Part shown: positions 14,775-17,214 of the stretch, in pieces
Numbering within the stretch: position 1 is the stretch's first letter
How the letters are laid out: every line of letters starts with the position of its first letter
DNA from: an uncultured Chloroflexia bacterium
GTDB taxonomy: Bacteria; Chloroflexota; Limnocylindria; Limnocylindrales; CSP1-4
Assembly: GCA_963725875.1 (NCBI GenBank)
Contig: CAVRZZ010000006.1
Coordinates: 313,847 to 377,846 of the forward strand
Direction of reading: 5' to 3'
Length of the DNA stretch: 64,000 nucleotides
Notes under the pieces: model-generated
Databases searched by the model: none
What the model saw: the letters and a program-made list of their open reading frames with translations, nothing else
Told to the model about the DNA's origin: nothing
Program-made: the position numbers and the translations under genes

Positions 14775-14978
14775 CTAGGCGGAGCGCACGTGTGCGGCGC
14801 GAGGCCCCTTGGGGCTCTCCTCGATGTCGAACTCGACGCGCTCGCCGCCGGAGAGGCGGTCGAAGTCGAGCGACGTGTCCAGGCCGCCGCGATGGAAGAA
14901 GTATTCCTTCGCATCCTCGGCGACGATGAAGCCGAAGCCGCGATCGGCGACGACCTTCTTGATGGTACCGGTGGCCAC
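14775..14978 (-). CDS. Cold-shock domain protein
   Basis: TGTIKKVVADRGFGFI (RNP1), YFFH (RNP2), VEFDIEESPKGPRA; GGAGG SD before GTG 14978. Confidence 0.93.
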   Translation of the reverse strand: MATGTIKKVVADRGFGFIVAEDAKEYFFHRGGLDTSLDFDRLSGGERVEFDIEESPKGPRAAHVRSA

Positions 14979-15250
14979 GAGGGACCTCCACACTCTTCCC
15001 GAACAGGGAGGGCGGAACGCACGGTCCGTTCGAGAAGGGGGATCGACCACGCGACGCTTCGTCGCACGAGGCGGCGAGAGCTGAGCATAGCACGGATCCG
15101 GTCCATCCCCACTCAGGCCCGATCCGGGCCCCCACTCGGGCGGGGCGGGCCGTGGACTGGCGACGGCACGGCGCGGGCTCGGTGCGGCTCGGGCTCGGTG
15201 CGGGCTCGGCGCGCGCCATGGGCGGCGGCCGTGGGCAGCCGGCCCGGGGT

Positions 15251-15407
15251 GCGCGCGGCGATCCTGGCCGCCTGAGTAGACAGTCTGCTCAGGATCGGCG
15301 GGCAGGAACGTGCGACTCACCCCGAACCGGCACGTCGGCGTGACCCACGTGCTCACGGACCGCGTGAGCGAGCAGATAGTCTGCTCAGGCGAGGATCGGC
15401 GACGCGC
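15251..15407. repeat. Imperfect inverted-repeat element containing two copies of a palindrome
   Basis: CCTGAGTAGAC-A-GTCTGCTCAGG (15271-15293) and GAGCAGAT-A-GTCTGCTCAGG (15370-15389); about 30-bp outer arms imperfectly complementary. Confidence 0.6.
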
Positions 15408-15606
15408 GGCGGGAGTGGGGCCGGAGTGGGATGAGCACGTCCGACCCGGCATCCGGCGCCCGCCCCCGCTCGCCAGCGTGATCGCCTCGCTCGTCGGTGG
15501 AGGCCGACAACGCCACCGAGCAGGTGGCGCCGCCAGGTCCACCGGGCAAACGACAGATCCAGTGCCCGCCACGCTCACGGCCGAGCCCTATCATCGGCGT
15601 GAGTGT

Positions 15607-15775
15607 CACCCTGTCGGGTGTCCGGCGGCTTGGCTCGTATCCTCGCTGCCCGCCGACGGGTGTGGCATCCCATCGATCTGCCGGCCGCCGGACATGGATC
15701 GGACCGACCGGTGTGACTTCATAGGAGCGTGGCAACCGCCCCCACTCAGGCGTGTCCACCGGCCGGTCCGGAGTG
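15607..15775 (+). ncRNA. IS110 bridge RNA (target-binding and donor-binding loops)
   Basis: Stem 15619-15629/15684-15694 (11/11) encloses guides matching the flanks; stem 15700-15713/15757-15770 (13/14) encloses guides matching the element ends. Confidence 0.82.
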
Positions 15776-15803
15776 TCACCCCTGATCAGGAGGCGACGAG
15801 GAG

Positions 15804-16853
15804 ATGATCGTCATCGGCATCGATTCGCACAAGCGCACGCACACCGCGGTGGCCGCGGACGGCAACGGCCGCAAGGTCGCCGAGGTCACCCTCGCGGCGA
15901 CCGGCGAGGGCCACCTCGAGCTCGTCCGCTGGGCGTCCCGGTTCCCGGACCGCCGGTTCGCGCTCGAGGACACCCGGCACCTGTCCCGCCGCCTGTCGGC
16001 CGACCTGCTGCGGGCGGGCGAGGCCGTCACCTGGGTGCCGACCCGGCTGATGGCCGGCGCCCGCCGCCACGGCCGCGAGCAGGGCAAGAGCGATCCGATC
16101 GACGCCCTCGCCGTCGCCCGGGCCGCGCTCGCGAACCCTGACCTGCCGGTCGCCACGCTCGACGGCGAGGAGCGCGAGCTGCGCCTTCTCGTCGACCACC
16201 GCGAGGACCTCGTCGCCGAGCGGACCCGGGCGACCAACCGCCTCCGCTGGCACCTCCACGAGCTCGACCCCGGCAACGAGCCCGCTCCCCGCAGTCTCGA
16301 CCGGGCGGTCGTGCTCGACGCGCTCGAGGTGCGGCTGGCCGGCGTCCCGGGCACCGTGGCCCGGATCGCCCGCGAGCTCGTCGCCCGGATCCGCGATCTC
16401 ACCAAGGTCATCCGGGAGCTCGAGCGGGAGCTGGAGCGCCTCGTCGCCCTCGTCGCGCCGTCGCTGCTCGCCCTGCCCGGCTGCGGGCCGCTGTCGGCCG
16501 CCAAGCTCGTCGGCCAGGTCGCGGGCGCCGGCCGTTTCCGGTCGGCCGCCGCCTTCGCCCGCCACAACGGCTCGGCACCGCTGCCGGTCTGGTCGGGCAA
16601 CACCGAGCGCCACCGCCTGTCCCGCACGGGCGACCGCCAGGTCAACGTCGTCCTCCACCGGATCGCCATCACCCAGATGCGCCTGGGCGACCGGGGTCGT
16701 GCCTACTACGAGCACCGCCGCGCCGCCGGCGACAGCAAGACGGAGGCGATCCGGGCCCTCCGCCGGCGGATCAGCGACGAGGTCTACCGCCGGATGCGCC
16801 ACGATGAGCTCCTCCGGGCGACGGCGCGGGCACCGCTCGCGACCGCCGCTTGA
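15804..16853 (+). CDS. IS110-family transposase/bridge recombinase
   Basis: RuvC-like DEDD (GIDSHK, ALED, KSDPID), LPGCGPLSAAKLVG, RFRSAAAFARHNGSAP, catalytic-Ser region WSG, EAIRALRRR; SD GAGGAG. Confidence 0.96.
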   Translation: MIVIGIDSHKRTHTAVAADGNGRKVAEVTLAATGEGHLELVRWASRFPDRRFALEDTRHLSRRLSADLLRAGEAVTWVPTRLMAGARRHGREQGKSDPIDALAVARAALANPDLPVATLDGEERELRLLVDHREDLVAERTRATNRLRWHLHELDPGNEPAPRSLDRAVVLDALEVRLAGVPGTVARIARELVARIRDLTKVIRELERELERLVALVAPSLLALPGCGPLSAAKLVGQVAGAGRFRSAAAFARHNGSAPLPVWSGNTERHRLSRTGDRQVNVVLHRIAITQMRLGDRGRAYYEHRRAAGDSKTEAIRALRRRISDEVYRRMRHDELLRATARAPLATAA

Positions 16854-16866
16854 CATAGGAGCATCG

Positions 16867-17214
16867 ATGGGAATCCCCGCACCGTGGCTGATCGGCCTCG
16901 TCCTCGTCTGCTTCGTCCTGGCCGCCATCCCGACCCGCCGGCTGGCCGACGCGGGGATCCGGCCGTCGTGGCTCGCGATCTACCTGCTCCTGCTCGTGGC
17001 GATGGGTGTCGCCGTGGTCGCGGCGCGGGGGGCCGGGCGGTACCTGGTCCCGCTTGTTGTCGTGCTCTACGTTGCGCCCCTGGTCGTCGCGCCGGAGACG
17101 ACCGCACGCTGGCTCCTCCGGGGCCGGCGGCCGCCGAAGCACGTCGGCTCGGGGCCCGGGCGTGACGTCGGCTCGGGCCGCGACGTGGGCCCGGACGACC
17201 ACCCCGCGCCGTGA
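16867..17214 (+). CDS. Small membrane protein
   Basis: Three hydrophobic segments from ATG 16867, immediately after the IS right end; GTGA overlap with next gene. Confidence 0.75.
   Translation: MGIPAPWLIGLVLVCFVLAAIPTRRLADAGIRPSWLAIYLLLLVAMGVAVVAARGAGRYLVPLVVVLYVAPLVVAPETTARWLLRGRRPPKHVGSGPGRDVGSGRDVGPDDHPAP

Follow-up and report, generated by a model that had tools for sequence, protein, structure and literature searches.

An IS110-group element with a predicted bridge RNA inserts between the -10 box and the start codon of leaderless genes

What guides an insertion sequence into the few nucleotides that separate a promoter from the start codon of a gene without a leader? The question is posed by an element in a 64,000-nucleotide stretch of contig CAVRZZ010000006.1 from an uncultured Chloroflexia bacterium; this whole stretch is called the window below. 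At positions 15600-16865, on the forward strand to which all of its features belong, lies a 1,266-bp insertion sequence of the IS110 family, which starts with TGAGTG, ends with GGAGCATC, and has neither terminal inverted repeats nor a target duplication. It is most probably an intact and recently active member of the IS110 group, equipped with a two-loop bridge RNA and a DEDD/Ser recombinase and aimed at leaderless gene starts. A first-pass annotation, made from the sequence alone, had described an intact IS110-group element with a two-loop bridge RNA of the IS621 type. Matches to Pfam and NCBIfam, compensatory changes in the stems and covariation of the guides bear out this description, and every sequence string that it named is found where it was placed. 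The target goes beyond that first description: the element aims at leaderless genes, at the short stretch that lies between their -10 box and their start codon.

The window's genome holds three copies of the element, 100% identical over exactly 15600-16865 and each with different flanks, which argues for recent movement. The three diverge from 15599 leftwards and from 16867 onward; since all of them carry G at 16866, the position of the right end can be given only to within about 1 nt. Nine more full copies, at 74-89% identity, are present in five other genomes of the same genus, and a scan of one genome per species added 80 further loci with recombinases that are 55-94% identical. The close relatives among these 80 are Chloroflexota ('Limnocylindria'), and the remainder are mostly Actinomycetota. 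Truncated or rearranged copies in relatives of the genus (G014, L009; G011, L014; G042, L026 and L042; G049, L041; G053, L040) speak for a long residence in the lineage, with older copies decaying.

The target guides spell a -10 box and a start codon

The left non-coding end of the element is predicted to encode a bridge RNA of about 150 nt (about 15618-15770) with a target-binding loop (TBL, 15618-15695) and a donor-binding loop (DBL, 15700-15770). Four guide segments can be read from these loops. The left target guide (LTG), UAUCCUCGCU at 15638-15647, has the same sense as the top strand of the target, and its portion TATCCTCG (15638-15645) matches the left flank TATCATCG (15589-15596) at 7/8 positions. 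The guide fits the flank of copy 3, TATCCTCGC, even better, at 9/9 positions, and the tenth position would pair as a G-U wobble. In the window this left target half (LT, 15589-15599) consists of the host's -10-like hexamer TATCAT (15589-15594) followed by CGGCG. The 3' arm of the TBL, TCCCATCGAT (15668-15677), is the exact reverse complement of 16863-16872. Its first part UCCCAUC (15668-15674), the right target guide (RTG), pairs at 7/7 positions with the right target half (RT) GATGGGA (16866-16872), which includes the host start codon ATG (16867-16869), where the homology to the gene in relatives begins. In the DBL, the left donor guide (LDG) CAUAGGAGC (15720-15728) has the same sense as the right end of the element and is identical to 16854-16862, so that CATAGGAGC is present at both places. 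The 3' arm of this loop (15743-15751) starts with CACUCA, followed by GGC; CACTCA (15743-15748) is the right donor guide (RDG), the reverse complement of the left end TGAGTG (15600-15605), which thereby serves as the right donor half (RD).

The assignment of these four segments and their strand sense had been proposed in the first-pass annotation, which also named covariation across orthologues as one way to check it. The proposal holds. String matches support all four segments, and among the relatives all guide arms except the LDG covary with their own DNA partners. The guide table comprised 92 copies; five rows (L049, L067, L105, L114 and L053, with unaligned loops or a cut flank) were dropped before counting. 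The mean match was 7.19 over the 9 nt of the LTG and the left flank (4.42 when shuffled; n = 70 distinct pairs), 4.76 over the 7 nt of the RTG and the right flank (2.33; n = 66) and 5.12 over the 6 nt of the RDG and the left end (3.54; n = 33), and in each case 0/5,000 shuffles reached the observed value. LDG and the right-end CATAGGAGC are nearly constant in the relatives, so that this pair gives no covariation information. Individual genomes illustrate how closely guide and DNA move together. Positions 3-5 of the LTG follow the flanks: TATCCTC is found in guide and flank of G000, TAGGCTC in the guide of G015 with TAGGCTC and TAGGATC in its flanks, and TACGCTC in the guide of G007 with flanks TACGCTC, TACGATC and TACACTC. 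The reverse complements of the RTG, ATCGATGGGA in G000, ATCCCATGGA in G015 and AACGCATGGA in G007, G017 and G019, follow the right junctions of those genomes. G018 also has the AACGCATGGA guide, yet its junction ATCCCATGAC fits at only 6/10 positions. Left ends that vary together with the RDG include TGAGTG, TCAGTG, TTTATG, TAAATA, CCAGTG and TTCGTG.

The guides are embedded in a conserved fold. The minimum free energy (MFE) structure of the left non-coding end has two stems, each of which encloses an internal loop with a central hairpin. In the TBL, the basal stem is formed by 15618-15634 with 15680-15695 and the central hairpin lies at about 15647-15667; the DBL has a basal stem, an internal loop and a small hairpin, GGC-AACC-GCC. 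RNAalifold was applied to 53 aligned non-coding ends, namely the left end of the window element and 52 loci drawn from 61 distinct upstream regions. Left out were L049, L067, L105 and L114, whose upstream regions did not align, the near-duplicates L046, L082, L091 and L104, and L072, which has a long insertion. The consensus recovers the two basal stems and the donor-loop hairpin with 27 pairs, 22 of them with compensatory changes, and many pairs switch from G-C to C-G or A-U. It pairs 96.7% of cells, compared with 80.6% when partners are shuffled (0/500 shuffles reach the observed value) and 28-49% when partners are slid by 1-3 columns. The TBL helix alone has 14 pairs, 12 with compensatory changes, and 98.7% of its cells are paired. 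In DBL helices 2-4 the paired fraction is 88.7-98.7%, and at pair 130/178, 32 sequences have G-C where the other 21 have A-U.

What the target guides of this clade spell is TANNNT(C) on the left and N1-2-ATG/GTG on the right, and the elements sit 1-2 nt upstream of leaderless start codons. All 12 full copies of the genus (in G000, G007, G015, G017, G018 and G019) have TANNNT plus 4-5 nt as their left flank, and 1-2 nt followed by an ATG or GTG that opens an open reading frame (ORF) as their right flank. Fourteen orthologous empty sites read TANNNT, 5-8 nt, ATG/GTG, with gene homology starting at that codon; at the locus of the window, the empty sites of relatives read TATCAT or TATGAT, 5-6 nt, ATG. 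Because the empty sites have only these 5-8 nt between TANNNT and the start codon, the gap has no room for a leader. Insertions of this -10/start class with a readable right flank number 42, and 39 of them have an ATG or GTG 1-2 nt after the element. From 38 of the 39 starts a frame stays open to the end of the locus or over 60 codons or more; this holds for the control frames in 10 and 30 cases, high numbers that reflect the high G+C content. The left end lies 4-5 nt after the -10 box in 36/42 insertions of the class, and removal of the element restores a spacing of 5 nt in one case, 6 nt in 21 and 7 nt in 14.

Such sites are frequent in the window's genome. Genome-wide, 265 sites have a TANNNT-to-ATG/GTG spacing of 6, and 177 of these open ORFs of at least 150 codons; spacings of 7, 8 and 9 occur at 179, 132 and 137 sites, spacings of 0-5 and 10-20 at about 50-100 sites each, and a control hexamer gives a flat distribution. 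The peak indicates that leaderless-type starts are common in this genome. The displaced host gene of the window (16867-17214), leaderless in relatives, encodes a 115-aa predicted membrane protein without a family match. The host gene of copy 2 carries a YbaK-like tRNA-editing domain (PF04073, E = 1.9e-29), and that of copy 3 has no match.

A quick version of a transposase tree was used only to see whether the -10/ATG class spans more than one clade. It places the class in a Chloroflexota clade, an Acidimicrobiia-rich clade and basal branches, and a class that targets IS3 elements forms one clade. Members of this sister clade (L069-L071, L081, L082, L086, L087, L093, L103, L106, L109 and L115) sit in the orfA gene of IS3-family elements, between the codons for AFFA and AELDR/KE.., and thus one IS family parasitises another. 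A third class has sites of the form ...ACACCGTTA.. / ..GGACAC.CCC; here the guide usually fails to match the third of the element's terminal bases.

Element boundaries and the bases at the crossover

The element had at first been given a right end at 16862 and a core of CG, GC or CATCG, and other copies and empty sites had been named as the means to decide between them. Both kinds of evidence were found, and none of the three cores holds up. A comparison within single genomes is offered by the sister class in IS3-family orfA genes, which has uninterrupted copies of the target in the same genomes as occupied ones. At four empty orfA sites in three genomes, aligned with occupied sites over 60 nt on each side, the insertion falls between ..TTCGCG and GC(C/G)GAG.. 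with nothing duplicated, and the sister elements span T... to ...CATAGGAGCATC at the right end. The three bases after CATAGGAGC are therefore part of the element, whereas the base that precedes its left end comes from the target, being a G in the window copy and a C in copies 2 and 3. The right end (16854-16865) is then composed of the left donor half (LD) CATAGGAGC and a terminal ATC, and the element stops at 16865 and not at 16862. In the four identical copies of G007, and in L102 and L104, variation begins directly after the terminal three bases.

The proposed cores fail against the two other local copies, the nine orthologous copies and the empty sites. CATCG is repeated at both junctions only in the window copy and is absent from the two others. 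CG is rejected by the other copies, by the sister empty sites without duplication, and by the scarcity of any shared dinucleotide: flank and element end in the same 2 nt in only 2/65 distinct insertions, and the guide has GAU at the place expected for the complement of a core. No part of the target is duplicated when the element inserts, and target and donor have no core dinucleotide in common. Under the favoured boundaries the target would read TATCCTCGCC|GATGGGA, the empty allele at the locus of the window is predicted to be TATCATCGGCG|GATGGGA, and in the circle ...CATAGGAGCATC would be joined directly to TGAGTGTCA.... The left half of the target tolerates a difference of 1 nt in length, being 11 nt long in the window copy, copy 2, G007a, G015b and G019, and 10 nt long in copy 3, G017 and G007b-d. 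A Chloroflexota copy (L053:458-495) carries the first 37 nt of its left end a second time, joined without a gap to the start of the full element, which looks like the product of an aberrant or half-site recombination.

In place of a core, both 3' arms end in bases that resemble the handshake bases of IS621. The 3' arms of that element, as described in PMC11208158, comprise the guide for their own right half, the shared CT core and two handshake bases, which, once the top strands have been exchanged, pair with the other substrate at positions 6-7. Here, the TBL 3' arm ends in GAU (15675-15677), the complement of the ATC with which the element itself ends. Across the relatives these TBL bases track the terminal 3 nt, be they ATC, TTC, AAC, AAA or AAG, with a mean match of 2.67 (1.55 when shuffled, n = 46, 0/5,000). 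The GGC that ends the DBL 3' arm is complementary to GCC, the last three target bases in copies 2 and 3 (GCG in the window copy), and over all classes the corresponding 3 nt match the end of the flank with a mean of 1.68 against 1.28 shuffled (0/5,000). At the sequence level, the bases 3' of RTG and RDG can thus pair with the other substrate. Because each arm ends in bases of the other partner, both 3' arms match the products of insertion rather than the substrates, and for IS621 such a product-matching handshake configuration is reported to favour insertion (PMC13626964). We infer that the element may recombine much as IS621 does, but with handshake pairing at every position close to the crossover. 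If this is confirmed, a core-less family would put the handshake model to a natural test and might provide a scaffold without the core constraint.

Promoters, a possible mechanism and alternative explanations

A promoter scan of the linear locus returned 0 sites. A TTGACA at 16850-16855, which would be the -35 half of a junction promoter, overlaps the stop codon TGA of the recombinase gene (16851-16853), and GCTTGACA is conserved here in relatives. The left end offers TG-n-CACCCT (15604-15612, with CACCCT at 15607-15612) as an extended -10-like half; among 53 left-end sequences T5 is invariant and G6, A9 and T13 are at least 90% conserved. The two halves of this predicted split promoter are present as first described, with a spacer of 17 nt instead of the 18 nt then given, since the element ends at 16865. 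The 17 nt are made up of 10 nt from the right end and 7 nt from the left end, and hold only for the favoured ends. TTGACA, the spacer and TG-n-CACCCT would form a promoter only in the circle. The sequence GAGTGTCACCC, whose first copy (15601-15611) at the left end spans RD and the junction -10, is directly repeated at 15771-15781, where it adjoins the DBL stem. A GTGTCACC-like motif is kept at the position of this second repeat in the Chloroflexota clade, and the second copy may serve to bind a protein or represent a pseudo left end.

On the left, 5 nt separate the host -10 box from the start of the inserted window element. At the other end AGGAG (16857-16861) precedes the host ATG at 16867 by 5 nt; host start codons follow AGGAG by 5-6 nt and the recombinase stop by 13 nt. 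Recombinase stop, AGGAG and host ATG are thus spaced as in a coupled operon. The only terminator-like site in the scan, at 17029-17051, is inside the host gene, and none lies between the recombinase and host genes.

From this arrangement and from what is published on IS621, the following cycle can be proposed. Excision would yield a circle, and transcription of the bridge RNA from the junction promoter would begin near 15619, where the target-loop stem has its foot. The complex of recombinase and RNA would pair the donor junction with the target and exchange top strands, as in IS621, and handshake pairing would pull the reaction forward and favour the inserted state. Once inserted, the element would be transcribed from the host -10 box, with a start at about base 2-3 of the element that would yield both the bridge RNA and the recombinase message. 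By analogy with IS621, whose excision is supported by read-through transcription and whose handshake guides set the direction (PMC13626964), this host-driven transcription would supply the read-through that excision needs. Whether read-through and the AGGAG of the right end also keep the displaced host gene translated, by coupling, is almost evenly poised, with the balance tipping slightly against it. Extended to the whole Chloroflexota/Actinomycetota clade, the proposal would make these elements 'promoter traps' of leaderless genes, which are driven by host promoters, turn the host gene through AGGAG into the Shine-Dalgarno-led last gene of an operon, and recombine free of a core. We put this forward tentatively, as a possibility that we judge rather doubtful in its full form. 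If true, the absence of a shared core would remove the core constraint on programming, and insertion behind a host promoter would be a simple answer to how an integrated IS110 element without a promoter gets transcribed.

How far do other explanations account for the same observations? The guide-like matches might be by-products of conserved ends and a site preference determined by the protein, with the non-coding end serving only as promoter or leader. The LDG and the right end hardly vary, as this would predict, and an Rfam search matched no family (best match E = 1.9, all far below gathering scores). Yet LTG, RTG and RDG follow their DNA partners through three target classes, compensatory changes preserve the stems, variants in related metagenome contigs concentrate at 15640-15644 and 15667-15674, that is, in the guide arms, and RNA guidance has been shown experimentally for this protein family (PMC11208160), so that we give the by-product account hardly any credence. 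A second alternative concerns the boundaries. The element could be a canonical IS621-like one with a 2-nt GC core at both junctions, running from 15599 to 16862, with ATCG(A/G)TG as pre-existing target. LTG and LDG both end in GC, and all three local copies have GC 1 nt before the left end and again before ATC, so that they read LT-GC-x-TGAGTG on the left and CATAGGA-GC-ATCG on the right. GC also stands at flank positions -3,-2 in 23/65 insertions and before the terminal 3 nt in 64/65, and the spacing fits exactly at two cross-species sites (those of copy 3 and G007d). Against this stand the same-genome empty sites of the sister class, which in 4/4 cases read ..GCG|GCC.. and not ..GC-ATC-GCC..; an uninterrupted version that contains ATC is absent from the five genomes searched, and A(T/A)C precedes the start codon at 0/14 orthologous empty sites as opposed to 12/12 occupied ones. 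A GC core would moreover restore spacings of 8-9 nt, where the genomic peak is at 6-7, and leave the junction promoter with a 15-nt spacer, and the base before TGAGTG differs between otherwise identical copies (G once, C twice) and is therefore flank. On balance a GC core is improbable.

With the core-less boundaries retained, it can still be asked whether the host promoter matters at all. The -10/start gap could be hit only as an abundant short motif, in which case insertion would uncouple the host gene, and neither the host promoter nor AGGAG would have a role. We regard this as quite possible, if somewhat short of an even chance. AGGAG lies within the donor stretch that the LDG reads, and sister classes whose targets are IS3 genes or other sites away from gene starts conserve it just as well, so that an origin as a ribosome site is not required; the copy number, at three, is low. 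Harder to accommodate are the lack of a recognisable promoter in the linear element, the need of IS621 excision for read-through transcription (PMC13626964), the 4-5 nt between -10 box and left end in 36 of 42 cases, and the short distances of the host start from AGGAG and the recombinase stop with no terminator between.

Several further points weigh against the reading that we prefer, in which a core-free, RNA-guided element exploits leaderless gene starts. AGGAG, as said, is shared with classes that do not hit gene starts. The fold energy of the left end alone is not significant (z = -1.1), and the shuffle counts given above for stems and guides overstate significance, as the relatives are not independent. 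In the junction alignment the three natural sites have 2, 5 and 3 mismatches to the 16 guide positions, and the best unoccupied sites have at least 3; a genome scan for further guide-matching sites found 24 with at most 4 mismatches and none that is perfect. Natural targeting must therefore tolerate several mismatches; the guide matches best beside the crossover and at the TA..T and ATG positions. The terminal ATC of G018 mismatches its own guide (AAC), and within the -10/ATG class the handshake match of the DBL is weak (1.51 against 1.36 shuffled, reached in 98/5,000). The 3-nt rule for the right end is transferred from the IS3-hitting sister elements, the window clade itself having cross-species empty sites only. 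The restored -10-to-start spacing equals that of the cross-species empty sites in 5/9 cases and is 1-2 nt shorter in the other four, a spread that leaves the right boundary good to about 1 nt. These cross-species sites revealed the architecture of the target but not the base-exact boundary; a further search gave one new usable site, and a metagenome scan with a 21-nt stretch of the host-gene start gave 2 matches, both by chance. No sequencing run contained more than 18% of sampled words, and four runs mapped to the window yielded only contigs of related elements (90-99% alike), with no circle junction and no empty-site joint; the skips and loose ends in these mappings stem from other copies or from different organisms. 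The stretch 15600-15844 is also covered by contigs of one RNA library, which derive from related elements, however, and may be DNA. The bridge RNA, the circular form and the transposition activity of the window element are accordingly predicted from sequence, and its use as a programmable recombinase is plausible on the same footing.

Relation to known elements and neighbouring DNA

The recombinase gene (15804-16853) encodes 349 aa with the DEDD (RuvC-like) and Tnp domains of the IS110 family and is intact in 3/3 local copies. Its product matches PF01548 (E = 3.7e-26, 92.2 bits) and PF02371 (E = 7.6e-18, 65.1 bits) in Pfam, and reaches 181.8 bits with the NCBIfam model NF033542, 'IS110 family RNA-guided transposase' (cutoff 140). 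It aligns end to end with the recombinases of IS621 (8wt6, E = 2e-6) and ISCro4 (9t56, E = 7.7e-8), and D7, E55, D97, D100 and S273 lie in the IGID, E, DxxD and (R)xS motifs common to both. We equate them with the catalytic residues on the basis of the residues named for IS621 in PMC11208158, D11, E60, D102, D105 and S241.

IS621 of Escherichia coli, with its bridge RNA and bridge recombinase (Durrant et al. 2024, PMC11208160; Hiraizumi et al. 2024, PMC11208158; PMC13626964), is the obvious reference. As described there, it shares with the window element a guide RNA upstream of the recombinase gene with two stem-loops and internal loops, 5' arms in LT and LD sense and 3' arms complementary to RT and RD, an LTG of 9-10 nt, a promoter (in the window element a predicted one) at the junction of right and left end with its -35 in the right end, a DEDD + Ser recombinase, and handshake bases in the 3' arms. 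The differences are equally clear. The proteins are only distantly related (E = 2e-6), and neither CT nor another dinucleotide is shared at the crossover (2/65). Three handshake-like bases take the place of two core and two handshake bases, the guide for RT is longer (7 nt), and the left target half tolerates a 1-nt difference in length. Finally, IS621 targets REP sequences, whereas the target here is the -10/start-codon gap of leaderless genes.

Gene starts are also the targets of the mycobacterial IS900/IS901/IS902/IS1110 group, whose members insert in an oriented and site-specific manner, without inverted repeats or duplication, between the ribosome-binding site and the start codon, and rely on expression signals of the host. 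IS900 thereby leaves the host Shine-Dalgarno sequence upstream of the element. In the elements studied here, by contrast, what stays upstream of the element is a -10 box, and the genes have no leader; the two groups are compared by description only. A 'host expression dependent' (hed) ORF has been described for the IS900 group (PMC8141618). The IS900 target consensus string did not appear in the eight best-ranked papers of a literature search.

ISEc21, an IS110-family element presented with the seekRNA concept (Siddiquee et al. 2024, PMC11187229), has an upstream non-coding guide region, no target duplication, and abutting ends that make a promoter in the circle, all as found or predicted for the window element. 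It also targets a conserved stretch of IS3-family transposase genes, as does the sister class described above. It differs in host phylum and in the stretch that is hit, which is the DDE-codon region for ISEc21 and the AFFA|AELDR codons of orfA for the sister class. A -10/start-codon target is not mentioned for ISEc21 in the consulted passages of PMC11187229, whose target logos are in the supplements. The best match among solved structures is the bridge recombinase ISCro4/IS622 (PDB 9t56, E = 7.7e-8; bioRxiv 10.1101/2025.05.14.653916), a distant relative with the same two-domain recombinase, compared here at the level of the protein.

By every tested feature except the shared core, the element belongs to the IS110 group. 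A further IS110 element with a bridge RNA would in itself be an ordinary find; the interest of this one lies in the target class and the missing core. The mechanism itself is known; what is unusual is that the element targets leaderless genes and that target and donor share no dinucleotide at the crossover. Neither an IS110-type guide for a leaderless -10/start gap nor a core-less bridge RNA was found in the literature searched, with supplementary tables and ISfinder outside the search. A guide that reads both a -10 box and a start codon ties the mobile element to the leaderless architecture common in Chloroflexota and Actinomycetota, the two phyla of this high-GC clade. Bridge recombinases are under development for programmable insertion, excision and inversion of DNA, and natural variants show which features are essential.

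Two features of the DNA to the left of the element may be added. On the minus strand, at 14775-15095, a cold-shock-protein-like (csp-like) ORF ends a long frame, with the C-terminal part ...KKVVADRGFGFIVAEDAKEYFFHRGG.... Upstream of this ORF, the stretch 15000-15095 is 84-97% identical across the genus, far above the rest of the intergenic region, and is possibly the csp 5' leader. Between this leader and the targeted promoter, a segment at about 15210-15556 is absent from the same intergenic region in relatives and has copies elsewhere in the genome, one at 92% identity (C2) and others at 72-77% (C5, C7 and C8).

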